Shown here: positions 1,002 to 10,414 of the stretch, piece after piece | How the letters are laid out: every line of letters starts with the position of its first letter | Position numbering within the stretch: position 1 is the first letter of the stretch | UHGV virus genome: UHGV-0124609 | Origin: a virus | Direction: 5' to 3' (one strand) | DNA: 14,435 nt | The notes under the pieces: model-generated | Seen by the model: only the letters and a program-made list of their open reading frames with translations | Told to the model about the DNA's origin: nothing | Databases searched by the model: none | Made by a program: the position numbers and the translations under genes

Positions 1002-3242
1002 CTATTCTAAATCCTCCTCTGTCACCACCAGCATTTCATTCGGCTCATATATCGTCTTTGGTCTTAATCTGTCACCCATCTTTTCCGGTATCCGGTAGGT
1101 GCCCGGTATAACTTCACCGTTAACATCGCACCCTAACATCAACTCACCGTCTTTCAGCATCTTCTCGAGATGATGGTTGGTTATGGCGTGGTCGCCCGAA
1201 TTCGCCACTATCTGCCGTTGTGTAAAACCTCGTCCGGTGTCGTCTGACTGTTGCAGGTCCTCCAGCGCGGCAAGTATTGATTCCTTACGCCCTTCATCCT
1301 TTCCACGTTTTACAGCGTTCTTTACGTTTTCTTTACCTTCTTTCGTCAGCCCTTCTTCCCGCTCTTTCTCCTCGTCAGTTTTGAACGGCTCGAAACCCCA
1401 CGGCATCAGCACAAGCGCCTTGTGCGGCTCAGGCAGGTCCAGGTTTACGATTGTGCCGTATTCCTCTGTGCTACCCAGGAACTCAACCGCACGGTACTCT
1501 TTCGGCGGTGGTGCTTCACGGAACTGTACCGACTCCAGCACCATGCCAACCGTCTTCTGTTGAGGCCCGTGCTTAAATTTAGAGTGGTATACGTTTATCT
1601 GACGGTCGGTAGCGCGTTCAATTGTCAGTTCCACGTCAACGCCCGCATACAGCGCGCCGCTGCCACGGGCTTTCTTTCCGCCCTTCGGTGTGTGGTGAAC
1701 AACACCTACCGCGGCTTTAGTCGCATCACGCACTTCTTTCAGGATGGCGATAACTTTACCCATACCGATTGCCGTTGATGAACTGTTCTCGTCAAACTTA
1801 TCAATCGTCAGGGCCAGGGTCTGGTTGAGGGTGTCAAACGCGACCATGCCGATAGGTTCATCGCCAGCGGTTTCACGCATTAACTTAATCAGGTTTTTCA
1901 GTTTTCCGACTTCGCCCATGTCGATGACATGTACATAATCTTTACCTTCCTCTCCGTATTTAGCCGCGAGTGCATCAATACGTGTGCGGGTAGCCGCGCC
2001 ACCCTCACCGTCGATATAGAAATGGTGACAGCGCTGGGTATCCGCCCCTGCGAAGCGATAGCCAGCGGCGCTAAGGTACATCACCCCCAGCGTATAGAAT
2101 GATTTGTACGTGCCAGATTCTCCGACGATATCCCAGATACAATCCGACGGCATGTACCCTTCTACGACGAAATCAGCCTTTACCGGTTCTGGTAATTCGT
2201 CCTCCTCGAAGTCCTCGTCGTCTTCCAGGTCGTCCAGGCTGCATGAAACGGATTCACGCGCACCCCATCCGATAGCCTCAGCCACTTCACTAAACGGCAG
2301 CCCGGTCGCGTCGCACGCATACTTCCACACCTCTTTCGGTGACATGCCTTCGGTTGCCGTAATGTCGGTGTCGTGAATCATGGTTACGTTCGGTGCTTCG
2401 TAGCCCTCTCGCGGGAAACACAGCAGGAAGTCGTCCGGCCGCGGTGTCGGGTCGCTGTAGTTTTCCGCATGTTCTGGTGTGGCGGGCATCTTAAGGCCGC
2501 GAGGTGTCATGACACCGCCGTACTCAAAAGCCAGTGCCTCGAACGCGTCTGTAAACGCGGTGCGCAGTTCTTCCGGTATCTGGTAATCCGATGCGCTGCT
2601 CACCTCGTAATCCGGGATGCCTTCCAGTAACTCATCCGGGTCAATCAGGTCGTTGCGACGCGACCAGATAACCTGAGAGCCAACCGGCGGCAGGTACATC
2701 GGTTGGGACAGAGTAAACCCGCTGCGGTCAGCGCCCATGCCTTTGAAGAAGTGCTCCAGCAATCCATGACGAACACGGATGATGTCGCCACCCTCAACAG
2801 GACTGGCCAGCGGCATGACGACACGAAAGCGCGGAGACTCATCGGTATGGGATGCCGTGGTATATAGGCACATCGCCTGGCGGCTGCGCTTAACCAGGCG
2901 CACAGCTTCCTGATACTCTTCCGGCGTTGCACTGTCGAAGTCCAGATACGCCAGCGACGATTTGCTTACAGACGCATCACAGCGATAGAAGAAGCCTTTA
3001 CGCGCTTGCTTAAAGTCGCCGGTTTCCAGGTCTTTTACGGTGCTGTGAGTAGAGTCGCACGCGGCGGTGATATATCCCGGCGCGGTCTTCGGGTTAATCC
3101 CGTCTCGGACAGAATCGAGCGGCTGGATTAACTCTTTCAGGTCGTCCAGTGTTGCCGTGTGTGTAGTTCTGACGTTTATATCCTTTTTCTCTGCTCGCGC
3201 GTTGCGGCGTGACCACGAGTAGGATAAAATTACATCGGACAT
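1002..3242 (-). CDS. putative replication primase/helicase (N-terminal primase-polymerase-like region plus a RecA/DnaB-like P-loop NTPase region), 746 aa
   Basis: Long complete ORF; ATG (revcomp of 3240-3242) preceded by SD GAAGGA with an 8-nt spacer. Translation contains a P-loop-like motif IVGESGTYKSFYTLG and a Walker B-like hydrophobic stretch ending in D (GMVAFDTLNQ), an acidic linker (DDLEDDEDFEEDELPE) and an acidic C-terminus (…VVTEEDLE). Family assignment is from motif pattern only. Confidence 0.85.
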   Translation of the reverse strand: MSDVILSYSWSRRNARAEKKDINVRTTHTATLDDLKELIQPLDSVRDGINPKTAPGYITAACDSTHSTVKDLETGDFKQARKGFFYRCDASVSKSSLAYLDFDSATPEEYQEAVRLVKRSRQAMCLYTTASHTDESPRFRVVMPLASPVEGGDIIRVRHGLLEHFFKGMGADRSGFTLSQPMYLPPVGSQVIWSRRNDLIDPDELLEGIPDYEVSSASDYQIPEELRTAFTDAFEALAFEYGGVMTPRGLKMPATPEHAENYSDPTPRPDDFLLCFPREGYEAPNVTMIHDTDITATEGMSPKEVWKYACDATGLPFSEVAEAIGWGARESVSCSLDDLEDDEDFEEDELPEPVKADFVVEGYMPSDCIWDIVGESGTYKSFYTLGVMYLSAAGYRFAGADTQRCHHFYIDGEGGAATRTRIDALAAKYGEEGKDYVHVIDMGEVGKLKNLIKLMRETAGDEPIGMVAFDTLNQTLALTIDKFDENSSSTAIGMGKVIAILKEVRDATKAAVGVVHHTPKGGKKARGSGALYAGVDVELTIERATDRQINVYHSKFKHGPQQKTVGMVLESVQFREAPPPKEYRAVEFLGSTEEYGTIVNLDLPEPHKALVLMPWGFEPFKTDEEKEREEGLTKEGKENVKNAVKRGKDEGRKESILAALEDLQQSDDTGRGFTQRQIVANSGDHAITNHHLEKMLKDGELMLGCDVNGEVIPGTYRIPEKMGDRLRPKTIYEPNEMLVVTEEDLE

Positions 3243-3299: not shown

Positions 3300-3533
3300 T
3301 TATTCCAGGTCTTCTAAAGTAGCGGTCATTCCGCGAACTTCAGCGACAGCACTATATTTCCCGCCGACATTTTTCACGACACCGGATTTAACCAACACCT
3401 TCAATGACCCTTCAATGATGGCGGAACTATAGTACTTAAAATAACTGCGGCGCAAGTCGATAACACTGCACGACCCTTTTTTACGTGTTAATGAAACGAC
3501 CGCCGTAAATACGCGTGACTGGAACTCGGTCAT
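3300..3533 (-). CDS. hypothetical small protein (77 aa), possibly winged-helix DNA-binding; translationally coupled to the upstream AlpA-like gene
   Basis: Complete ORF whose start overlaps the stop of the upstream gene by 4 nt (ATGA). The assignment of a winged-helix fold is a weak guess from the pattern SLKVLVKSGVVKNVGGKYSAV. C-terminus …TATLEDLE resembles the primase C-terminus. Confidence 0.7.
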   Translation of the reverse strand: MTEFQSRVFTAVVSLTRKKGSCSVIDLRRSYFKYYSSAIIEGSLKVLVKSGVVKNVGGKYSAVAEVRGMTATLEDLE

Positions 3534-3700
3534 TTCACGTTCTCCTTAATCCACGCTTCCACTTTCTCCGGGTCAAACGTACCTGGCTGCCGGCGGCCCA
3601 TAATGCGGGTACAGCAATCAGGGAACTTCCCGCTCTTTAACCAGTTATTCAGCGTGCGACGAGTAACCCCGATGCGCTCTGCTACTTCATTCTGCGTCAT
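3530..3700 (-). CDS. AlpA-family-like HTH DNA-binding protein (phage transcriptional regulator/excisionase-like), 56 aa
   Basis: Translation MTQNEVAERIGVTRRTLNNWLKSGKFPDCCTRIMGRRQPGTFDPEKVEAWIKENVK matches the AlpA/HTH_17 pattern (HTH, then FP, then a conserved W). ATG at the revcomp of 3698-3700 has SD GAGGG with a 7-nt spacer; the ORF track's longer form starts at TTG 3727 with no SD. Confidence 0.8.
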   Translation of the reverse strand: MTQNEVAERIGVTRRTLNNWLKSGKFPDCCTRIMGRRQPGTFDPEKVEAWIKENVK

Positions 3701-3732
3701 TCTCAAACCCTCATTATCAGTTAACAAAATCG

Positions 3733-3761
3733 AGTATACATTGCGAATAATGGGAAATCAA
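3733..3761 (-). promoter_or_regulatory. sigma70-like promoter for the leftward AlpA/primase operon (TTGATT-N17-TATACT)
   Basis: On the minus strand, -35 TTGATT is the revcomp of 3756-3761 and -10 TATACT the revcomp of 3733-3738, with a 17-bp spacer; about 30 nt upstream of the ATG at 3700. Confidence 0.5.
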
Positions 3762-4041
3762 ACATAATCGCACCTATTGACATTATGAAAATCTTCGTTT
3801 AAGGTGCTTCTATATCTTAGTTACTTTGATTCTTGTTCACCTTGTAAACCCCGCCGAAAACGAGCGCCCAACGCGAAGTGTTAGGCGGCAGTTTACTGAA
3901 CATAAGAATTATCGTAACTTTCCTTCCTTAATATCTCCGGTTGCCCTGGGCAAGCTCTATTCTCATCGGCAGCATATCTCTTAAGTAACTGATTTTCTTA
4001 ATGTACCGTAGATTCACAACCGTAAAAATGTAACCCTTACC

Positions 4042-4065
4042 GGGCAGGCTTAAGGCCTGCCCTTT
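4042..4065 (+). other. stable stem-loop (GGGCAGGC-TTAAG-GCCTGCCC) followed by TTT within the non-coding region; possible terminator of a small transcript or structural element
   Basis: 8-bp perfect GC-rich stem at 4042-4049/4055-4062, 5-nt loop, then TTT at 4063-4065. No plus-strand ORF lies upstream of it. Confidence 0.3.
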
Positions 4066-4134
4066 AGTTACCAAGTAATAAGAATAAAGGCACAACCCTA
4101 CCTGAAGAATCACAACGGCAATGTAACTATTCTC

Positions 4135-4163
4135 TTGCACACCCCAACATAATAGGATACTAT
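4135..4163 (+). promoter_or_regulatory. promoter TTGCAC-N17-TACTAT driving the rightward early small-gene block
   Basis: -35 TTGCAC at 4135-4140, 17-bp spacer, -10 TACTAT at 4158-4163; identical hexamers and spacing recur at 5401-5429. The ATG at 4198 lies about 30 nt downstream. Confidence 0.5.
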
Positions 4164-4197
4164 TCACTTATCGAAACGAGACATAAGGAATTTAGAA

Positions 4198-4416
4198 ATG
4201 AACAAAGCGACCGCAAGCGTAGTTTCCGCAATCAAAGAAGTTTACGGCATCGATATTTCAGAGCGCGTAATCATCGGTAATAAGCGCAACTTCTTTACGT
4301 TCGACACCGACGGAATGGATGAAAATGATTTTATCAACGTACAACGTTTCGCTAATGATAGAGGGCTTCGTAACGAGCCTGCAGGTTACAAGAAATTCGC
4401 TATCTACTTTAAATAA
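4198..4416 (+). CDS. hypothetical protein, 72 aa
   Basis: Complete ORF; ATG 4198 preceded by a purine-rich leader (AACGAGACATAAGGAATTTAGAA); first gene downstream of the 4135-4163 promoter. Confidence 0.8.
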   Translation: MNKATASVVSAIKEVYGIDISERVIIGNKRNFFTFDTDGMDENDFINVQRFANDRGLRNEPAGYKKFAIYFK

Positions 4417-4434
4417 GACAGAGGAGTGATGGTT

Positions 4435-4623
4435 ATGTTTAAGAAGGGTCAGTTGGTCAAAGCTGTAAATAGCAATTATTTCATTGTTGAAAGCGAGTCT
4501 GCAGTTTTTCCGAGGGCTTATAGAGTAAGTTTTATACGGGAAAGATTAGGAGCGGTAACTTGGTTCCGTGAAGATGAGCTAACACTCATCGGCAACAATT
4601 TTAAATTCAAAGGGGCGAAGTGA
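4435..4623 (+). CDS. hypothetical protein, about 62 aa
   Basis: ORF 4426-4623 in the track; ATG 4435 is best placed relative to SD GAGGAG at 4421-4426 (8-nt spacer). Alternative in-frame starts are GTG 4426 and ATG 4429. Confidence 0.75.
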   Translation: MFKKGQLVKAVNSNYFIVESESAVFPRAYRVSFIRERLGAVTWFREDELTLIGNNFKFKGAK

Positions 4624-4877
4624 TGGAAGAATTAATTTGTATTGAATCTGGTCCAGATGTGCGGCATTGGTTTGTAAAAGGTAACAAGTATTCGTCAGGG
4701 GTATATTACGACGGCCGTCGATACGTTTTAGATGAAGACGGTGATGAATGGGACTTAGAGCAATCACATGGTGAAGCCTTTACCGTGAATTTCCTGGGCA
4801 CACCCGCCATAACATTCACAACGGCATCGAATCATGATGCTCGTGCCGATGACTCTGAGGGAGGTTGCCGTGGATAA
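4623..4877 (+). CDS. hypothetical protein, 84 aa
   Basis: ATG 4623 overlaps the upstream TGA stop (TGATG), indicating translational coupling; an AGGGG SD-like lies upstream. Confidence 0.75.
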   Translation: MEELICIESGPDVRHWFVKGNKYSSGVYYDGRRYVLDEDGDEWDLEQSHGEAFTVNFLGTPAITFTTASNHDARADDSEGGCRG

Positions 4878-4899
4878 TATTTTAATGGTGGAGGTTGAT

Positions 4900-5094
4900 A
4901 TGAGCCCGTATAACAAATTTCGCTTACGCCGTCTTGTTGGTGGTCTGCGCGCCGCCGAGTTTGGTGTTGAATGTTGGGAAAAGGCGAAATATACCCCATG
5001 GAAGTCGTGGCATTTGGTTCATGCTAAGGCGGTAGCACAGTACCGTGAGTACAAGTTAAACAGTTTCCTTAAGCACCACGGGGTTGAGTTATGA
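4900..5094 (+). CDS. hypothetical protein, 64 aa
   Basis: ATG 4900 with SD GGTGGAGG at 4887-4894 (5-nt spacer). In-frame alternative starts at GTG 4870 (SD GAGGGAGG), ATG 4885 and ATG 4834 cannot be excluded. Confidence 0.65.
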   Translation: MSPYNKFRLRRLVGGLRAAEFGVECWEKAKYTPWKSWHLVHAKAVAQYREYKLNSFLKHHGVEL

Positions 5095-5252
5095 GAGAAG
5101 CATTTGAACGGTGGGCCGTCGTAGAGGGTCTGCCGGTTAACAAGGGTTCGAAGAAAGAGTACCTGACCGTTAAGACACGTCTTGCGTGGCGGGCGTGGAA
5201 AGCTGGTGTGCAATTTCGTGCTGGTGTAACAGGTGGTGTAACAGGTCAATAG
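5091..5252 (+). CDS. small hypothetical protein, 53 aa (not in the ORF track)
   Basis: ATG 5091 overlaps the upstream stop (ATGA); frame open to TAG at 5250-5252. Translation MREAFERWAVVEGLPVNKGSKKEYLTVKTRLAWRAWKAGVQFRAGVTGGVTGQ; the C-terminal GVTGGVTG comes from a tandem repeat. Confidence 0.5.
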   Translation: MREAFERWAVVEGLPVNKGSKKEYLTVKTRLAWRAWKAGVQFRAGVTGGVTGQ

Positions 5253-5274
5253 GTTACTATTTGTCTTTGTGTCT

Positions 5275-5333
5275 TACGCTGCTACACAGCAGCGTACAAC
5301 TTTAACTTAGTGTCGTCAAAAGGCGACACTTTT
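5275..5333 (+). terminator. pair of stem-loops after the first early-gene block; the second is followed by TTT(T)
   Basis: Hairpin 1: 9-bp perfect stem at 5275-5283/5288-5296 with a 4-nt loop and no U-tract. Hairpin 2: 7-bp stem at 5309-5315/5324-5330 with an 8-nt loop, followed by TTT at 5331-5333. Confidence 0.35.
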
Positions 5334-5400
5334 CACCAAACGCAACAATCGAAGCGACTATTGCAGGAGATGCAACAATACAAACACCAATAAAATTTAC

Positions 5401-5429
5401 TTGCACACTGGGATAGAATAGACTACTAT
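5401..5429 (+). promoter_or_regulatory. promoter TTGCAC-N17-TACTAT with an AT-rich upstream element
   Basis: -35 TTGCAC at 5401-5406, 17-bp spacer, -10 TACTAT at 5424-5429; AT-rich CCAATAAAATTTAC immediately upstream; ATG at 5461 lies 32 nt downstream. Confidence 0.55.
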
Positions 5430-5460
5430 TCATTTACACGAACGAGAGGATAGACAGAAG

Positions 5461-5610
5461 ATGGTTACTTTGATGATTATGGAATTCGAAAACAGCGCTG
5501 CAACTTACCGCGAGATGACTATGGCGCAGGCGTACCATCTGGCATCAAACGGCAGCTTCTACAAGGCTCAAATCATCAATGAGTTCGGGGTAATTGACTA
5601 TGAATTTTAG
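5461..5610 (+). CDS. small hypothetical protein, 49 aa (not in the ORF track)
   Basis: ATG 5461 preceded by the leader AACGAGAGGATAGACAGAAG; frame open to TAG at 5608-5610; its 3' end overlaps the start of the next gene. Confidence 0.55.
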   Translation: MVTLMIMEFENSAATYREMTMAQAYHLASNGSFYKAQIINEFGVIDYEF

Positions 5611-5872
5611 AAGATACACCGTTACCGTTGATTTTGAGGGGCTGGATTTGCCCCTCCCCAACAACTACCGGTATATAACCCGTGACCGTTTCGGGTTTAT
5701 TCAGGGGTGGCGTAACAAGCCGACAGACACTGAGTTCGGGATGTCGGGTGGTGAAGAGTTGCCGATCACGTTCGGGCACCAAAGTAGTAACGAAGAGCTT
5801 AAAACTGTGATTCGTAAGTATCGTCGCCGGGGTAAAACTGAACTTATCGCAATAACAGGCGCTGTTGAATAA
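5600..5872 (+). CDS. hypothetical protein, 90 aa
   Basis: ORF 5594-5872 in the track (TTG); the first ATG is at 5600 with a GGGG SD-like upstream. Confidence 0.75.
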   Translation: MNFRRYTVTVDFEGLDLPLPNNYRYITRDRFGFIQGWRNKPTDTEFGMSGGEELPITFGHQSSNEELKTVIRKYRRRGKTELIAITGAVE

Positions 5873-5891
5873 ACGAGAGGAGAGACGGAAG

Positions 5892-6320
5892 ATGAGTAAC
5901 AAAAACGAAGTATTCGAGTACCTGATTGACCAGCTACGGCAGCAGGTAAATAAGAAAGATGTGACATCTTTCAATGTATCTGTGCAGATATCCGACCTTG
6001 ATGAGGTCAAGCAGGTAGTCCACAACCTACAGCAGCATATCGCAGGTAAGGATGACGAAATACGTGCGCTGAAAGACAGTTTACGGCAGCAGGTAAATAA
6101 CAACCAGTGCGAAGACCTGGCGCATGAGGTGCAGTCACTTAAGAATCAGTTACGTGATGCGTCGGCGCTGGTGGCTGAGTTGCAGAAAGAACTTGATGTC
6201 GCGAATAGCACCGTAGCTCGTTTGAGTAAAGAGGGGGTACAGAGGTGCAACCATGTTTGGTACAGGTACAACTTAGGCGGCTACACTAAGATGTGCCTTA
6301 AATGCGGGCTAAAGAAATGA
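5892..6320 (+). CDS. coiled-coil protein with a C-terminal Cys/His cluster (putative zinc ribbon), 142 aa
   Basis: ATG 5892 preceded by AACGAGAGGAGAGACGGAAG (the track's longer form starts at TTG 5865 inside the previous gene). Translation is heptad-like and Q/L/K/E-rich, with a repeated LRQQVN segment and C-terminal CNHVWYRYNLGGYTKMCLKCG. Confidence 0.8.
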   Translation: MSNKNEVFEYLIDQLRQQVNKKDVTSFNVSVQISDLDEVKQVVHNLQQHIAGKDDEIRALKDSLRQQVNNNQCEDLAHEVQSLKNQLRDASALVAELQKELDVANSTVARLSKEGVQRCNHVWYRYNLGGYTKMCLKCGLKK

Positions 6321-6520
6321 CCAGCATCTTATTTATCTGGGTACTGGCCGCGGGCCATATGCACCTAGCGGCAACAGAAACGTTTTACTCGATGGAGGCG
6401 TGCCAGTCAGCGGCACGCGCCGCGGAGAACGCGCACTTTCTGTTTCAGGGTGACAAGCCCAACGATTCAGAGGTACGCGCTATCTGCTCACCTAAGCGAC
6501 TTAGCAAACAGGAGAAGTGA
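6302..6520 (+). CDS. small protein with an N-terminal hydrophobic segment (signal peptide or membrane anchor), 72 aa
   Basis: ORF in the track; N-terminus MRAKEMTSILFIWVLAAGHMHLAA has a positively charged n-region followed by a hydrophobic stretch. Alternative start ATG 6317 overlaps the upstream stop (ATGA). Confidence 0.7.
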   Translation: MRAKEMTSILFIWVLAAGHMHLAATETFYSMEACQSAARAAENAHFLFQGDKPNDSEVRAICSPKRLSKQEK

Positions 6521-6522
6521 TT

Positions 6523-6774
6523 ATGGTTGTACGATATGACTTAACAGAAGATTTTGCGGGTACAGTAGATATAACGCCTGTCCCGGACTCGCATGAAGGA
6601 CGTTATGTAAGCTACGAAGATTACGCGAAACTCGAAGCCGAACTTCTGGAAATAAAAGCTGCAGCCCGTTGTCTTGTGCGAGAAGCGAGTAAGGTGTATA
6701 GCGATTATAGTGACGTTATAGCGCCTGAGTTTGTAGACCAGCAAACCATATACGAACTGGGCATTCTGCTATGA
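6523..6774 (+). CDS. hypothetical acidic protein, 83 aa
   Basis: ATG 6523 with SD AGGAG at 6510-6514 (8-nt spacer); the track's longer form starts at GTG 6517. Confidence 0.75.
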   Translation: MVVRYDLTEDFAGTVDITPVPDSHEGRYVSYEDYAKLEAELLEIKAAARCLVREASKVYSDYSDVIAPEFVDQQTIYELGILL

Positions 6775-7064
6775 GCCTCGCAACGGACATCCTGGAACGA
6801 AGCGGCCTTGCGCCGCTGGCACCGAGAGCTAAAACACGGATACACAAGCGTCGCCGTAACGCGCTGTACCCTGAGATTCAGGCCAGACGCAAAGCGGTAC
6901 GCGCCTGTGGATTCCAGAACGGGAAGGCTGTGAACCTCGGTGAGTTTAAAACGCAGGAGCGCGCTGCAATCGCTAATCGGTTATTTAATTACTGGAAATC
7001 GCTGGGATACGATGATATCCCGACGAAACCACAGAGGCGACAATACATCTGGCGTCATAAATAA
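6771..7064 (+). CDS. hypothetical basic protein, possibly DNA-binding (weak AP2-like pattern), 97 aa
   Basis: ATG 6771 overlaps the upstream stop (ATGA). Basic N-terminus (KTRIHKRRRN) and the segment GFQNGKAVNLGEFKTQERAAIANRLFNYWKSLGY are consistent with an AP2-like fold; this is a pattern guess only. Confidence 0.7.
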   Translation: MSLATDILERSGLAPLAPRAKTRIHKRRRNALYPEIQARRKAVRACGFQNGKAVNLGEFKTQERAAIANRLFNYWKSLGYDDIPTKPQRRQYIWRHK

Positions 7065-7139
7065 ACCGTTATTAGGATAATTCCTACCCGTGGTATCCTC
7101 CAGTTACTGCATACTTAATACGCACCTGGAGGATTCATC

Positions 7140-7448
7140 TTGGATAAATTTACTGAAACAGTGACGGGGTGGCTTCTCGCTGCCGCACTAGCCGGAGGGG
7201 TAATCGGGCTACGACAACATAAGTCCGTTATTTCAGGCCCAATAGACGGCTTCTGCTTTATTGCAACAGGCTTCACCTGCGCCGTATTTGGTGCACCTCT
7301 TGCGGCCCAATGGTTTGGCATCACGGGCGACCGTGAAATCGCAGGCCTGGGCTTCATTATCGCTATTCTCTGGATGCCTATCTATTCCCGCCTTTCTGGC
7401 ATCGTCGCCGGAGAATACATCGCACGTCGAGGAGGCCCGGATGAATGA
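7140..7448 (+). CDS. holin-like membrane protein (three predicted TM segments, charged C-terminus), 102 aa, TTG start
   Basis: TTG 7140 with SD GGAGGA at 7128-7133 (6-nt spacer) and no in-frame ATG nearby. Hydrophobic segments WLLAAALAGGVIGL, FCFIATGFTCAVFGAPLAAQWFGI and IAGLGFIIAILWMPIY; lies immediately upstream of the endolysin. Confidence 0.7.
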   Translation: MDKFTETVTGWLLAAALAGGVIGLRQHKSVISGPIDGFCFIATGFTCAVFGAPLAAQWFGITGDREIAGLGFIIAILWMPIYSRLSGIVAGEYIARRGGPDE

Positions 7449-7713
7449 GTTATTCTGGTTCGGCGGTATGCTGGCAATCGGAGGCACATCGCTGTTTAAT
7501 GTATACCACTCCAGCGTTGACGACGGACTATTTGGTAGGGTGCTCTATATCCTGACCGCTATTGTCTGTGCCGCCGGATGTATCCACCTGTTACAGGGCA
7601 GCATGTCGCCCACGCTGCCAGAGACATTAATCACATTAGTTGCGCTGCGTCAGATTCGCCAGGCGTGGCTGGCATACGGAGGACATAAGCGTGTCTCGAA
7701 ACATTTCAGATAA
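7441..7713 (+). CDS. second holin-like/antiholin-like membrane protein (at least two TM segments), 90 aa
   Basis: ATG 7441 with SD GGAGG at 7431-7435 (5-nt spacer), overlapping the upstream stop (ATGAATGA). Hydrophobic segments LFWFGGMLAIGGTSLF and VLYILTAIVCAAGCIHLL; basic C-terminus. The track's 7261-7713 ORF is an upstream extension in another gene's coding region. Confidence 0.7.
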   Translation: MNELFWFGGMLAIGGTSLFNVYHSSVDDGLFGRVLYILTAIVCAAGCIHLLQGSMSPTLPETLITLVALRQIRQAWLAYGGHKRVSKHFR

Positions 7714-8179
7714 TGGGCTGCATTTCACCGCCGCATTTGAGGGGTTCCGGGGAACTGCGTATCGCGCTACGCCGAACGAAAAGTACCTGACTATCGGGTA
7801 CGGTCACTACGGCCCAGACGTAACACCCGGTAAGACCATCACACCGGGGCAGGGCCTCCTGTTACTGAATCGCGATATGGCTAAGGCCGTGGCTGCGGGT
7901 GATGCAGCAGCGCACCATTCGCTGACACAGGCGCAGTTCGACGCGGTGTGTGACCTGGTCTATAACGCGGGTGCTGGTGTGATTGGGGTTAATACTGGCA
8001 CGGGTAAGGCGCTGCGTTCTGGTGATATTGCGACGCTGCGTGCTAAGCTGGCGCTGTTTATCAACCAGAACGGCAAACCGCTACTAGGCCTGCGTCGCCG
8101 TACTGCGGGTCGGCTGGCGCTGTTCGACGGTAAACCGTGGCAGGAGGCTGAGGCTATTGGGCGCGCGGTGAAAGGTTGA
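7691..8179 (+). CDS. endolysin, phage lysozyme (GH24 / T4-lysozyme-like family), about 162 aa
   Basis: Translation contains the family hallmarks FEGFRGTAY and TIGYGHYG. GTG 7691 has SD GGAGG at 7678-7682 (8-nt spacer); the track's form starts at TTG 7640 with no SD. The gene overlaps the preceding holin-like gene by 23 nt. Confidence 0.9.
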   Translation: MSRNISDNGLHFTAAFEGFRGTAYRATPNEKYLTIGYGHYGPDVTPGKTITPGQGLLLLNRDMAKAVAAGDAAAHHSLTQAQFDAVCDLVYNAGAGVIGVNTGTGKALRSGDIATLRAKLALFINQNGKPLLGLRRRTAGRLALFDGKPWQEAEAIGRAVKG

Positions 8180-8245
8180 CACCTAAGACCAATCCGACGA
8201 TACTTAAATCACCTCCTGCTCCATCCCTCTGCTCTCCAGTTTTAT

Positions 8246-8277
8246 CCCGGCCCTGACCCAGCCGGGATTTTTTTTTA
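8246..8277 (+). terminator. strong rho-independent terminator after the lysis cassette
   Basis: Stem CCCGGC/GCCGGG at 8246-8251/8261-8266 with a 9-nt loop, followed by ATTTTTTTTTAT. Confidence 0.75.
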
Positions 8278-8298
8278 TCTATTTTCTGTAATGACTAG

Positions 8299-8328
8299 TT
8301 GACTATTACCTACGACCCTACTATATTT
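8299..8328 (+). promoter_or_regulatory. sigma70-like promoter (TTGACT-N18-TATATT) for the 8361-10328 block
   Basis: -35 TTGACT at 8299-8304, -10 TATATT at 8323-8328; the AACGAGA leader motif at 8339-8345 and ATG 8361 follow. Confidence 0.5.
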
Positions 8329-8360
8329 ACTTCGCCGACAACGAGAACGGGGTAGAGAAG

Positions 8361-8510
8361 ATGAAAATCACAGATACCGAAGCATTCAAAGACGCACAAC
8401 TGATGGCACGCATCGCCGTTAGTAACCTGAGCAACAGCATTCCGGCGGACGCGTTCTGGTTCGCTGCGATGCAGACACTGAAAGCAGCTTATGCAGGAGA
8501 GAAGAAATGA
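8361..8510 (+). CDS. small hypothetical protein, 49 aa (not in the ORF track)
   Basis: ATG 8361 preceded by AACGAGAACGGGGTAGAGAAG; open to TGA at 8508-8510, overlapping the next start (ATGA). Translation MKITDTEAFKDAQLMARIAVSNLSNSIPADAFWFAAMQTLKAAYAGEKK. Confidence 0.55.
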   Translation: MKITDTEAFKDAQLMARIAVSNLSNSIPADAFWFAAMQTLKAAYAGEKK

Positions 8511-8704
8511 AAGTTAAAGCCACTAAAATTCTCTGGTTAGCCGCCCTTGACTATGTCACAGAGGGTAAAGTGTATGATGTATACAACCCGACAGCTACTG
8601 GTTTCGGTTATATAGACTCCGACGACGACTGCCATATTTTCATAGACTTTGGTAACGATGACGGTGATGGTTTCCACGGCGTTAAATGGGAGGTTGTAGA
8701 ATGA
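8507..8704 (+). CDS. hypothetical acidic protein, 65 aa
   Basis: Complete ORF in the track; its start overlaps the upstream stop and its stop overlaps the next start (ATGA at both ends). Confidence 0.75.
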   Translation: MKVKATKILWLAALDYVTEGKVYDVYNPTATGFGYIDSDDDCHIFIDFGNDDGDGFHGVKWEVVE

Positions 8705-8862
8705 GTGAACAAGGCCCAATAAACCAACCATTACGAGTAGGTCGTAAAGTCAACCACACCCCGTTCCCGACACGTGAGGAACTGATGAAACGCAACAGTT
8801 TTCCGGGGCCGGACAAGAACAAGTATCTAAATCGCATGTGGGGAGAGCGTAAAAATGACTGA
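8701..8862 (+). CDS. small hypothetical protein, 53 aa (not in the ORF track)
   Basis: ATG 8701 overlaps the upstream stop (ATGA); open to TGA at 8860-8862, overlapping the next gene by 8 nt. Translation MSEQGPINQPLRVGRKVNHTPFPTREELMKRNSFPGPDKNKYLNRMWGERKND. Confidence 0.55.
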   Translation: MSEQGPINQPLRVGRKVNHTPFPTREELMKRNSFPGPDKNKYLNRMWGERKND

Positions 8863-9079
8863 CCGAGACTATGAAAAGATGATGGTAGAGGCCGTTAACA
8901 GCGGCGTAGACATTAGCTACGTGATGCACGTCCTGAATACTAAAATCGCGGTAGCCGAGCAAATAGTTGAGTCGCTTTACGAGACACGCCGTGAACTAAT
9001 TAACCGCTTCAACCTGAACAAAGGTGGCACCAATGCCATCGACACCGACAAAATTCCGGACCTGAACCTGGAGGATTAA
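8855..9079 (+). CDS. hypothetical protein, 74 aa
   Basis: Complete ORF in the track; ATG 8855 preceded by the purine-rich GGGGAGAGCGTAAAA. Confidence 0.7.
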   Translation: MTDRDYEKMMVEAVNSGVDISYVMHVLNTKIAVAEQIVESLYETRRELINRFNLNKGGTNAIDTDKIPDLNLED

Positions 9080-9084
9080 CAAAA

Positions 9085-9384
9085 ATGAGTAGTAGCACAT
9101 TAGATAAAATTGAAAAAATGCAGGTCATCCTGCGAAATATGAAATCAGACATTAAGCGACAGGACCGGTTGAATTCAATAAACAGAATGGAACTAACTAC
9201 GAAGCAAGCGCAGAAGCGCAATGCTGAAGCGGCATGGATAGCAATGGAACAGATTAAGCGCCGTCATGAATTGCATGCCTTGTCTGTTGAGTTGGGGTTT
9301 GCAGAACGAAGGGATGATTATAGCGCAATAGAGTTAACTGACGGATGGCATTGCTTTACTTACAAACCAAGAGAGCCAGATTGA
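9085..9384 (+). CDS. hypothetical protein, 99 aa
   Basis: ATG 9085 with SD GGAGGA (CTGGAGGATTAACAAAAATG). Confidence 0.75.
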   Translation: MSSSTLDKIEKMQVILRNMKSDIKRQDRLNSINRMELTTKQAQKRNAEAAWIAMEQIKRRHELHALSVELGFAERRDDYSAIELTDGWHCFTYKPREPD

Positions 9385-9483
9385 GCCACAAGAAATTTGC
9401 AATTAGCCGTGAGCACGCCGCCGTAGTGGCCGACGATATACGAGAAACGGCGTGGCTTGGTGATGGGATAGTGGGGTGATTAT

Positions 9484-9654
9484 ATGTTCAGTGACATCAA
9501 CGCAGCAATAGAAGAAGCAATCTGGCGTCGCTACAACGGCGAACAGCAACGGCACTTCTGCCTGGTGCAACGGGGTAACATGATTGCTGTAGTGCAGGAC
9601 CGCGACAACAAATATCCGAATGCGATGTGGACAACGAGGAATTTCTTAGGATGA
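9484..9654 (+). CDS. small hypothetical protein, 56 aa (not in the ORF track)
   Basis: ATG 9484 preceded by GGGGTGA; open to TGA at 9652-9654, which overlaps the next start (ATGA). Translation MFSDINAAIEEAIWRRYNGEQQRHFCLVQRGNMIAVVQDRDNKYPNAMWTTRNFLG. Confidence 0.5.
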   Translation: MFSDINAAIEEAIWRRYNGEQQRHFCLVQRGNMIAVVQDRDNKYPNAMWTTRNFLG

Positions 9655-9887
9655 TTACCAGCATCCCAAACCTGATTAAAGAATACGGCACGATGGCCGA
9701 GACATGCCGACAAACCGGCATCAACGAAATGACGATTGCGAAGTACAGCAAAGACGTGAATTGCGAGCGCCACGTAATTTATAACAACCGTCTTATGACG
9801 CACGTTAAGACAAGTCCGGTGTTATTCACGCGCCGTGGTATCACTAAAACTGAGCAACGCATTGCTAAAGAGGAGAGCGGGGGATGA
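9651..9887 (+). CDS. hypothetical protein with a possible helix-turn-helix segment, 78 aa
   Basis: ATG 9651 coupled to the upstream stop; the track's form starts at GTG 9627. The segment MAETCRQTGINEMTIAKY looks HTH-like; this is a weak inference. Confidence 0.7.
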   Translation: MITSIPNLIKEYGTMAETCRQTGINEMTIAKYSKDVNCERHVIYNNRLMTHVKTSPVLFTRRGITKTEQRIAKEESGG

Positions 9888-10066
9888 TTGATATTTTGAA
9901 AGTTACAAATGCCGTTGGCTGCCTGGTGTTTTGGTTGGCGTTTCTCGGTGTGCTGATAAAACAACCGACTTTGTTTAACAGTCTTCCTAGTTATCTGTGG
10001 TGGCCTATGTTTTTAGGCATGGTTGTATCAGGCGTGGCGGGCATCCTTTTGTGGTTTTTCAAATGA
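9884..10066 (+). CDS. small integral membrane protein (two predicted TM segments), 60 aa
   Basis: ATG 9884 overlaps the upstream stop (ATGA), with SD AGGAGAG upstream. Hydrophobic segments AVGCLVFWLAFLGVLI and YLWWPMFLGMVVSGVAGILLWFF. Confidence 0.7.
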   Translation: MIDILKVTNAVGCLVFWLAFLGVLIKQPTLFNSLPSYLWWPMFLGMVVSGVAGILLWFFK

Positions 10067-10178
10067 GATTACTAATAATACCTAACGCCTGGGTTATCGC
10101 TGTAGCTAACGACCATTACGGTGGCGACGGTAAAAGAGCACAACGACACGGCCTATATAACTGATTGGAGAGTGAAAA

Positions 10179-10328
10179 ATGATTGAATTTGATGATGTTT
10201 TATTTGAGAAATATAACGGAAGGGTGTTTTTGACTGTGATGTACGGTGTTTACTCAAAGTCCTTTGACGGGTTTTCGAAAGCAGATTGTATAAATCAACT
10301 ACTATCGTGGGTCGCAAGACGCAAATAA
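10179..10328 (+). CDS. small hypothetical protein, 49 aa (not in the ORF track)
   Basis: ATG 10179 with SD GGAG at 10167-10170 (8-nt spacer); open to TAA at 10326-10328, immediately followed by a terminator. Confidence 0.5.
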   Translation: MIEFDDVLFEKYNGRVFLTVMYGVYSKSFDGFSKADCINQLLSWVARRK

Positions 10329-10337
10329 CCAATAACA

Positions 10338-10362
10338 AGCCCTCTACGGAGGGCTTTTCTGT
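10338..10362 (+). terminator. rho-independent terminator (AAGCCCTC-TACG-GAGGGCTT then TTCT)
   Basis: 8-bp perfect stem at 10338-10345/10350-10357, 4-nt loop, then a T-rich tail. Confidence 0.65.
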
Positions 10363-10389
10363 ACATCCCACCCAATCCACTTATATAAT
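10360..10389 (+). promoter_or_regulatory. candidate promoter for the packaging operon (TGTACA-N18-TATAAT)
   Basis: Consensus -10 TATAAT at 10384-10389; weak -35 TGTACA at 10360-10365. A palindrome follows immediately downstream. Confidence 0.4.
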
Positions 10390-10395
10390 CCCTTT

Positions 10396-10414
10396 AGACG
10401 CGTAGGGCGCGTCT
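10396..10414. promoter_or_regulatory. perfect inverted repeat AGACGCG-N5-CGCGTCT between the promoter and the terS start; candidate operator or 5'-UTR hairpin
   Basis: 7-bp arms at 10396-10402 and 10408-10414 with a 5-bp spacer; a third direct AGACGC half-site lies at 10432-10437. Confidence 0.4.

Follow-up and report, generated by a model that had tools for sequence, protein, structure and literature searches.

The internal proteins Ip1 (IPI*), Ip2 and Ip3 of phage T4 are small, compact and non-essential, and they vary among related phages; mature IPI* has 76 residues, and the proteins are injected inhibitors that are active at the very start of infection (PMC12373910, PMC3012670). Each of the three inhibits a variant of GmrSD, a type IV restriction system (PMC12373910). 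Internal proteins form a diverse set of defence proteins, and the sole feature common to them is a capsid targeting sequence (PMC3012670, PMC12373910). Here, we describe a block of small genes at positions 4198-7064 of a 14,435-nucleotide (nt) stretch of viral DNA (UHGV virus genome UHGV-0124609; hereafter, the window). The first gene of the block, g1, encodes a homologue of Ip9, a T-even internal protein of the same gene class as Ip1-3, without the targeting sequence.

Judging from its similarity to sequenced phages, the window is a segment of a genome of the genus Kagunavirus (subfamily Guernseyvirinae). Whole-window megablast returned 480 phage records, the best of which are Escherichia phages of this genus with ~90% identity; these cover just 67-82% of the window, in 10-19 pieces. 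We propose that the block is probably a variable accessory arm with which rightward transcription of the genome starts, and that it consists of two transcription units and two classes of gene. Gene-by-gene comparisons were made with ten related phage loci (the relatives). The features of the block and its borders are listed here with product lengths in amino acids (aa) and, where given, isoelectric points (pI).

4042-4062, plus strand: terminator-like GC-rich hairpin upstream of P1, with a 9-pair stem (7 GC pairs) followed by TTTAGTT
4135-4163, plus strand: P1, promoter-like TTGCAC-N17-TACTAT, with the conserved leader TCACTTATCGAAACGAGACA
4184-4420, plus strand: g1 cassette, 237 bp with GACA on both sides, between the P1 leader and the ribosome-binding site of g2
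4198-4416, plus strand: g1, 72 aa, Ip9-like domain, phrog_7673 (‘internal head protein’)
4435-4623, plus strand: g2, 62 aa, basic (pI 10.0), phrog_12538
4623-4877, plus strand: g3, 84 aa, acidic (pI 4.4), mosaic
4900-5094, plus strand: g4, 64 aa, basic, no family match
5091-5252, plus strand: g5, 53 aa, basic, phrog_15836, final gene of the first unit
5275-5296 and 5309-5330, plus strand: hairpin pair, the second followed by UUUU at 5331-5334, likely the intrinsic terminator of the P1 unit
5401-5429, plus strand: P2, second copy of TTGCAC-N17-TACTAT, with the leader TCATTTACACGAACGAGAGGA
5461-5610, plus strand: g6, 49 aa, DUF7170 (PF23776)
5600-5872, plus strand: g7, 90 aa, 11-nt overlap with g6
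5892-6320, plus strand: g8, 142 aa, phrog_6094, coiled coil and Cys/His module
6317-6520, plus strand: g9, 67 aa, phrog_3766, N-terminal hydrophobic segment
6523-6774, plus strand: g10, 83 aa, acidic (pI 4.2), sporadic and mosaic
6771-7064, plus strand: g11, 97 aa (pI 11.2), putative divergent AP2-type domain
7095-7134, plus strand: 9-bp hairpin, AUCCUCCAG...CUGGAGGAU, which pairs the holin Shine-Dalgarno sequence CUGGAGGAU and is without a U-tract

The best lead in the block is g1, as a leaderless Ip9 homologue. It matches phrog_7673 with E = 4.3e-27, aligned only to profile positions 20-90, and tblastn finds it in 171 phage records. Thirteen of these, kagunaviruses as far as sampled, have at least 60% identity; the remaining 158, T-even phages as far as sampled, have less than 60% identity, and in T-even phages the gene is ip9. 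When g1 is aligned with Ip9 of RB15 (CAA84463), RB32 (YP_803082) and other T-even phages, identity is 49-58% over all 72 residues (E 1e-18 to 7e-24), and the motifs GNKRNFF, RFAND(K/R)GLR and GYKK(F/Y)AIY are conserved. The homology to a named internal protein spans the mature domain. The AlphaFold (AF2) model of g1 is a compact alpha-beta-beta-alpha-beta-beta domain (pLDDT, the predicted local distance difference test, 93.5), and no structural similarity was found between this fold and IPI*.

The capsid targeting sequence, MKT(Y/F)xEFIxE, is cut by the prohead protease. A leader, mostly of this form, is present at the N-terminus of 17 of 17 aligned myovirus homologues of g1, and all kagunavirus versions start after it. 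The 90-aa forms of Ip9 have 18 N-terminal residues, including the capsid-targeting and cleavage signal MKTYQEFISE, that are absent from g1; the first residue of g1 aligns to Ip9 position 19, and g1 is without the capsid targeting that characterizes T-even internal proteins. The setting also differs. The first description of ip9 comes from RB15, where the gene is part of the polymorphic internal-protein locus; in RB32 it lies between 57B and tRNA genes. In contrast, g1 belongs to a siphovirus and is located not in a T4-like internal-protein locus (57B to tRNA region) but directly behind P1, in the non-structural arm of Kagunavirus. The 237-bp cassette that contains it is a clean insertion carrying its own ribosome-binding site: in DNA alignments, it is present in the window and in Bas70, and cleanly absent from Shashou, Bas76 and BUCT825.

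Two other homologues of Ip9 bear on the history of the family. Escherichia phage Av-05 (L014, KM190144.1, 1456-1716), a 121 kb member of the Vequintavirinae, encodes a homologue with a full MKTFNEFISE leader; hence, the form with the leader extends beyond records labelled T-even. In the T-even internal protein of OLB35 annotated as ‘ip7 protein’ (L015, 1366-1596; P0141), similarity to the Ip9/g1 domain is confined to the C-terminal half of that domain (75% identity over residues 41-72), a partial match that indicates domain shuffling among internal proteins.

What might a leaderless internal protein do? Since each of T4 Ip1-3 blocks a variant of GmrSD, our working hypothesis is that g1 inhibits a host nuclease, most plausibly one that is modification-dependent (type IV, GmrSD/BrxU-like). 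Rather than being injected, g1 would be made directly upon entry from the first promoter-proximal position, and would then bind and block the nuclease. Kagunaviruses encode DNA methyltransferases (PMC12645636), as is also seen in the annotation of the Bas70 genome, and type IV enzymes could therefore act on their DNA. A more far-reaching reading, which we put forward tentatively and consider rather unlikely as a whole, is that the Ip9 effector domain moved between T-even myoviruses and Kagunavirus siphoviruses, with a switch of delivery from injection to expression, that g6-g7 are a second cross-family counter-defence cassette, and that g11 is an AP2-type lysis or late regulator. If Ip9/g1 inhibits a nuclease, the domain would be a counter-defence module workable by either mode of delivery. 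Were this true, leaderless g1 would give easy access to Ip9, a T-even internal protein that is itself uncharacterised.

The last gene of the block, g11, can also be assigned to a family. When 1.84 billion representative proteins were searched with a profile, 70 were returned. Members of the family are mostly 100-140 aa long; a strongly conserved MSLATDIL-type motif at the N-terminus (D6 invariant) is followed by a basic linker and by an AP2-like core with the pattern GV..W.A...K..LG.F.T.ERA.IA.RLY..W...G..DIP.KP. One of the proteins returned, P0074 (E = 8.3e-11 to the profile), is a multi-domain protein that matches Pfam AP2 at 6.9e-33; a relative of g11, P0062, matches PF00847 with E = 0.009 (16.7 bits; cut-off 33.3). 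The family profile has two matches in the PDB, both AP2: 7wq5_A (WRINKLED1; 2.1e-5) and 7et4_A (TEM1; 5.1e-3). The family is homologous, at the level of profiles, to bona fide AP2 proteins. AP2 is also among the top Foldseek matches of the g11 model (1gcc, AtERF1; probability 0.82). Based on these matches, we conclude that g11 is probably a divergent, shortened AP2-type DNA-binding protein. Three relatives of g11, at 33-44% identity, lie directly before a pair of holin-sized genes and a lysozyme gene; their more distant upstream neighbours are unrelated, and two other relatives have an uninformative or a different neighbourhood. We infer that g11 is a candidate regulator of downstream lysis or late gene transcription. 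The family would be a testable candidate for such a regulator in phages that are of interest for therapy and synthetic biology.

The gene order next to g11 varies. A gene for an HslV-like protease of ~146 aa is located between the g11 homologue and the holin gene in CR01, BUCT825, Shashou, NTEC3 and VIPECOTPH05A (for example, L001 8484-8924, L002 7900-8340 and L003 4395-4832). It is absent in the window (7064-7140), and in Bas70, Bas76 and XY1.

The block is strongly mosaic, which is a signature of accessory genes. Positions 4100-7100 are matched by 739 phage records, the best of which covers 80%; typical kagunaviruses cover 50-65%, in 7-10 pieces. All ten relatives have g9 and g11 (77-95% identity), g5 (78-97% identity over 77-100% of its length, with a C-terminal end that differs in most of them) and g2, which is just 43-52% identical although the backbone is ~90% identical. 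Far fewer relatives have g1 (3/10), g4 (5/10) or g6 and g7, which are jointly present in five and jointly absent in the other five. g10 is full-length in two and partial in four, and g3 and g8 are chimeric. On a larger scale, g8, g9 and g11 occur across the Guernseyvirinae, in 317, 475 and 494 records, respectively. Because they are present in so many phage records, these three genes look phage-intrinsic and are unlikely to provide host-specific counter-defence.

Together, these patterns suggest two classes of gene. The first would belong to the phage's own programme: g11 as a regulator, g9 as a small membrane protein, and g8 with its coiled coil and zinc-ribbon-like module. The second would consist of exchangeable or rapidly diverging cassettes and hold the candidates for takeover or counter-defence: g1, g6-g7 and the hypervariable g2, along with the other, sporadic or mosaic, genes g3, g4, g5 and g10. 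With three of the 11 genes subfamily-wide and probably part of the phage's own programme, the counter-defence candidates are narrowed to a few cassettes, and anti-defence functions are plausible only for those that can be swapped.

Traces of exchange are also visible at the end of the first unit. The last ~10 residues of g5 (5220-5252) are unlike those of most relatives, and a DUF551 gene that follows g5 in BUCT825 (L002 5848-6195) and others is absent in the window. This suggests a deletion or replacement that ends in the terminator region.

How is the block transcribed? The sequence TTGCAC-N17-TACTAT occurs at exactly two sites in the window, 4135 and 5401, and at none in 200 shuffles. The likeness of P1 and P2 continues into the leader sequence, and all ten relatives keep both copies at equivalent positions. 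In these loci, P1 is directly followed by g1 or g2, and P2 by g6, g8 or an unrelated gene. Since the genes differ among phages, each promoter-leader looks like a fixed junction with variable cargo, and the conserved promoter-leaders, with short linkers at gene ends, appear to serve as recombination junctions for cassette exchange. The exact duplication, conservation and position of P1 and P2 suggest that they act as promoters.

The earlier note, which was made from the sequence alone, held that these promoters drive the block. The motif is indeed real, repeated and conserved, but the block is not one unit, since two hairpins split it. The region 5250-5400 has a minimum free energy of -40.5 kcal/mol (z = -4.77; 0 of 200 shuffles as stable) and contains, at 5309-5334, the GC-rich hairpin and U-tract of an intrinsic terminator. 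In phage Shashou, a terminator is annotated at the place equivalent to 5275-5334. Because this terminator lies in the 208-nt gap between g5 and g6, we divide the block into two units: P1 with g1-g5, and P2 with g6-g11. Both would be transcribed by host RNA polymerase. P1 (4135) would drive g1-g5, with transcription ending at the intrinsic terminator (5309-5334), and P2 (5401) would drive g6-g11. No U-tract terminator was found between g11 and the holin gene; the P2 transcript therefore probably reads on into the lysis genes, that is, the holin genes and endolysin gene. Continuity with the lysis genes makes the label ‘early’, which the earlier note gave to the whole block, uncertain. On the other side of the block, the hairpin at 4042-4062 would insulate it from transcription that comes from the intergenic control region.

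Two further elements flank the units. The hairpin at 7095-7134 is more stable than expected (z = -3.2; 0 of 200 shuffles as stable). The first holin gene starts with TTG at 7140, and its sequestered Shine-Dalgarno sequence may time lysis at the level of translation. In the intergenic control region, a rightward promoter-like site (3741-3768) and the strong terminator-like hairpin at 4042-4062 are ~290 nt apart. No consistent open reading frame (ORF) lies between them, and the annotations of relatives disagree, with small ORFs on one strand or the other in some and no ORF in others; the stretch 3741-4062 may yield a small RNA or a leader transcript.

The gene content of the block largely agrees with what the earlier note had described. 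Small same-strand genes do fill 4198-7064, and all encode products of less than 150 aa (the largest is 142 aa). The start/stop overlaps it gave are exact: 4623 (TGATG, 1 nt), 5091 (ATGA, 4 nt), 5600 (11 nt), 6317 (ATGA, 4 nt) and 6771 (ATGA, 4 nt). Four other gaps are 2-22 nt, and one is 208 nt. The overlapping or abutting stop and start codons are those of translationally coupled operons. As had also been claimed, no protein has an enzymatic motif, and Pfam, NCBIfam, PHROGs and PADLOC gave no match to a housekeeping or structural family either. The count of about 13 ORFs, in contrast, was too high: reading of the sequence, together with the lengths of annotated relatives, gives 11 genes, and a search of the 208-nt gap (5253-5460) for the missing ORFs found no credible addition. 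Nor is it the case that none of the genes can be assigned, since g1 has an Ip9 domain and g11 appears to have a divergent AP2-type DNA-binding domain.

For the other genes, the only matches in family libraries were DUF7170 (g6), PHROG families without an assigned function and, for g8, coiled-coil artefacts. PDB sequence searches with g1, g2, g7, g8, g10 and g11 gave nothing significant. The clearest of the library matches is that of g6 to DUF7170, with 67.2 bits (cut-off 27; E = 1.3e-18), which passes the Pfam gathering threshold; a literature search found no paper mentioning DUF7170. g7 is in 126 records, including Drexlerviridae. The overlapping g6-g7 pair is also found in the Drexlerviridae phages JakobBernoulli and aalborv, and in a Klebsiella Jedunavirus phage; outside Kagunavirus, identity is 65-69% for g6, which occurs in Hanrivervirus and Jedunavirus, and 46-79% for g7. 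From this distribution, g6-g7 is a mobile, translationally overlapped two-gene module that crosses phage families. A T1-like homologue of g7 is carried by thirteen ‘Campylobacter phage’ records of 47-50 kb (H115-H117: MG065641, MG065643, MG065681), which resemble coliphage-type genomes and are probable labelling errors.

All 317 records with g8 are of the Guernseyvirinae type. The protein has an invariant N-terminus, indels in the coiled coil and, among relatives, one or two C-x-H-x-W...C-x-x-C-G modules (one in the window); this C-terminal Cys/His module looks zinc-binding and zinc-ribbon-like. Matches of g8 to YabA, SMC, JetC and Gp5.9-like proteins were rejected as compositional artefacts of the coiled coil; the Gp5.9-like match, for example, has E = 0.0019 over 28 coiled-coil residues. 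g9 is probably a small membrane protein. We rejected a role for g9 as a spanin, since Rz-like spanins are annotated elsewhere in Bas70. g2 is found in 84 records, all Kagunavirus (37-90% identity); in every relative examined, it takes first or second place behind P1. In g3, wide sharing is limited to the C-terminal ~18 residues. The start of g4 at 4900, with GGAGG 5 nt upstream, fits its homologues of 192-195 bp. No informative match was found in family libraries for g3, g4, g5 or g10.

Several observations weigh against the functions and the transcription that we propose. For g1, we know of no characterisation of Ip9 itself; moreover, the known targets of T4 internal proteins are, to our knowledge, enzymes specific for glucosyl-hydroxymethylcytosine, and we know of no such DNA in kagunaviruses. 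Kagunaviruses of the BASEL collection that carry most of the block genes are highly sensitive to restriction-modification (RM) (PMC11990801), which argues against broad anti-RM activity. One RM-sensitive phage, Bas70, carries a 94%-identical g1 together with g4-g7, g9 and g11. For g11, there is no Pfam match at E <= 0.1, so that it falls below the threshold for AP2 (PF00847); its AF2 model is confident only at residues 43-77, with strands 43-49 and 52-59 and helix 62-77 (pLDDT 83-92), and the first of the three strands of the AP2 domain is absent from it; and the Foldseek matches in the PDB, which include five AP2 structures (1gcc, 7et5, 7wq5, 3igm and 5wx9), are all weak, with E > 0.1. Common descent, in place of a functional link, could also account for the synteny between g11 and lysis genes. 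As for P1 and P2, they match the sigma-70 consensus at just 7 of 12 positions (3/6 and 4/6, with a 17-nt spacer), and a generic promoter scan of the window did not list them. Finally, the sole time-course RNA-seq published for a Kagunavirus (vB_Eco_K1B4) assigned 42 of 57 genes to a ‘middle’ class and just 4 to an early one, and did not resolve the block; its text names one early gene, for a helix-turn-helix (HTH) protein (PMC12645636).

The earlier note suggested host-takeover and anti-defence functions for the block; taken to its full extent, this would make the whole block, conserved genes included, a counter-defence or host-takeover set. In favour of it, the proteins are small, without a family match and tightly packed behind promoter-like sequences, the region is mosaic, and g1 is homologous to the T-even internal-protein class. 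A PADLOC scan of ten proteins (all except g5) for known anti-phage defence proteins found only coiled-coil artefacts in g8 (JetC, LmuB and PbeC, E >= 6.5e-5). Against such a set, g8, g9 and g11 look phage-intrinsic, being found in 317-494 Guernseyvirinae records with hosts that include Escherichia, Salmonella, Klebsiella and others; g11, as a likely AP2-type DNA-binding protein, is held beside lysis genes; and kagunaviruses with most of these genes are still RM-sensitive (PMC11990801). We consider it improbable that every gene belongs to such a set, and prefer an accessory arm in which only exchangeable cassettes are candidates. A stronger competitor, if a doubtful one, is that the g6-g11 unit is part of the lysis or late programme rather than of an early accessory block, with g9 and g11 acting together with the holins and endolysin. 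This would account for the absence of a terminator between g11 and the holin gene, the sequestration of the holin ribosome-binding site in a hairpin, the persistence of g11-lysis synteny in distant relatives, and the hydrophobic N-terminal segment of g9, a core gene of the subfamily; in vB_Eco_K1B4, moreover, the lysozyme gene is classed as ‘middle’ (PMC12645636). On the other hand, the occurrence of g6-g7 and g10 is that of sporadic cassettes, P2 is identical in sequence to P1, suggesting that the units are co-regulated, and spanins are encoded elsewhere in Bas70, so that no lysis function is obviously missing.

Two other explanations concern single genes, and both fare worse than the proposed accessory arm. 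Relatives of g1, such as Bas70_0057 and SHAK7858_0056, have a PHROG-based label of ‘internal head protein’, and the match to phrog_7673 (4.3e-27) would fit a genuine internal head protein that is packaged and injected. Yet g1 is without the defining capsid-targeting leader, the Bas70 annotation lists no T4-type prohead protease beside its scaffold and major head proteins, and g1 is the first gene after a putative promoter in a non-structural arm, in just three of the ten relatives. This explanation is almost certainly wrong, and the public label is probably a misnomer for a siphovirus protein with no targeting leader. It is also very improbable that the 11 ORFs include chance ORFs or remnants of genes in decay. 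No library places g4 in a family, and g3, g5 and g10 are only partly conserved; however, every ORF has a homologue of matching length annotated as a coding sequence in related phages, every one starts with ATG behind a purine-rich ribosome-binding site or at a coupled overlap, and ORFs on the minus strand of the region, of which 3928-4167 was scanned, have no family match.

The surroundings of the block are as the earlier note described, with replication genes on one side and lysis genes on the other.

1002-3242, minus strand: helicase-primase gene, a single 746-aa ORF in the window
3300-3533, minus strand: small gene
3530-3727, minus strand: HTH gene
470 nt between the HTH gene and the block: intergenic control region
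7140-7448 and 7441-7713, plus strand: two holin genes
7640-8179, plus strand: endolysin gene

Downstream of the endolysin gene is a second run of small ORFs, followed by terminase and portal genes. This second block (8176-10400) is on the same strand and is preceded by near-consensus sigma-70 sites, TTGACA-N17-GATACT at 8176 and TTGACT-N17-TATATT at 8299; it holds at least as much promise for undescribed functions as 4198-7064. Rfam and tRNA scans of the window gave no matches. Two anomalies were seen in related records. In CR01 (L001 2097-4353), the helicase-primase is annotated as two pieces with a 255-bp ORF between them, whereas the window has one ORF; a frameshift, an insertion or faulty assembly may explain this. 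SHAK7858 (L005, OR594183.1) is collinear with kagunaviruses although its record bears the name ‘vB_EcoM’ and a placement in Autographiviridae/Kayfunavirus, probably a labelling error.

The same region is present in hundreds of sequenced Guernseyvirinae, in which its products are labelled ‘hypothetical proteins’, and a block of this kind is expected by phage biologists. Phage AP2 domains are usually fused to HNH homing endonucleases. The g11 family resembles the AP2/ERF domain (PF00847) in that its profile matches AP2 alone in the PDB, as well as a multi-AP2 protein. It differs in that g11 is below the Pfam threshold, appears to be without the first strand, and stands alone with no nuclease domain, and in that it adds an invariant MSLATDIL N-terminus, a conserved DIP.KP tail and a place beside the lysis cassette. 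Apart from the Gp5.9-like artefact of g8, no protein of the block matches a characterised member of the nin, Ocr, Gam, ArdA or Gp5.9 proteins. The likeness to known systems lies instead in architecture: the nin region of lambda, the class I early genes of T7 and the small-ORF arms of T1-like phages all consist of tightly packed, coupled small ORFs and are mosaic, as here. The likeness extends to cassettes that are shared across phage families, as g6-g7 is with Drexlerviridae.

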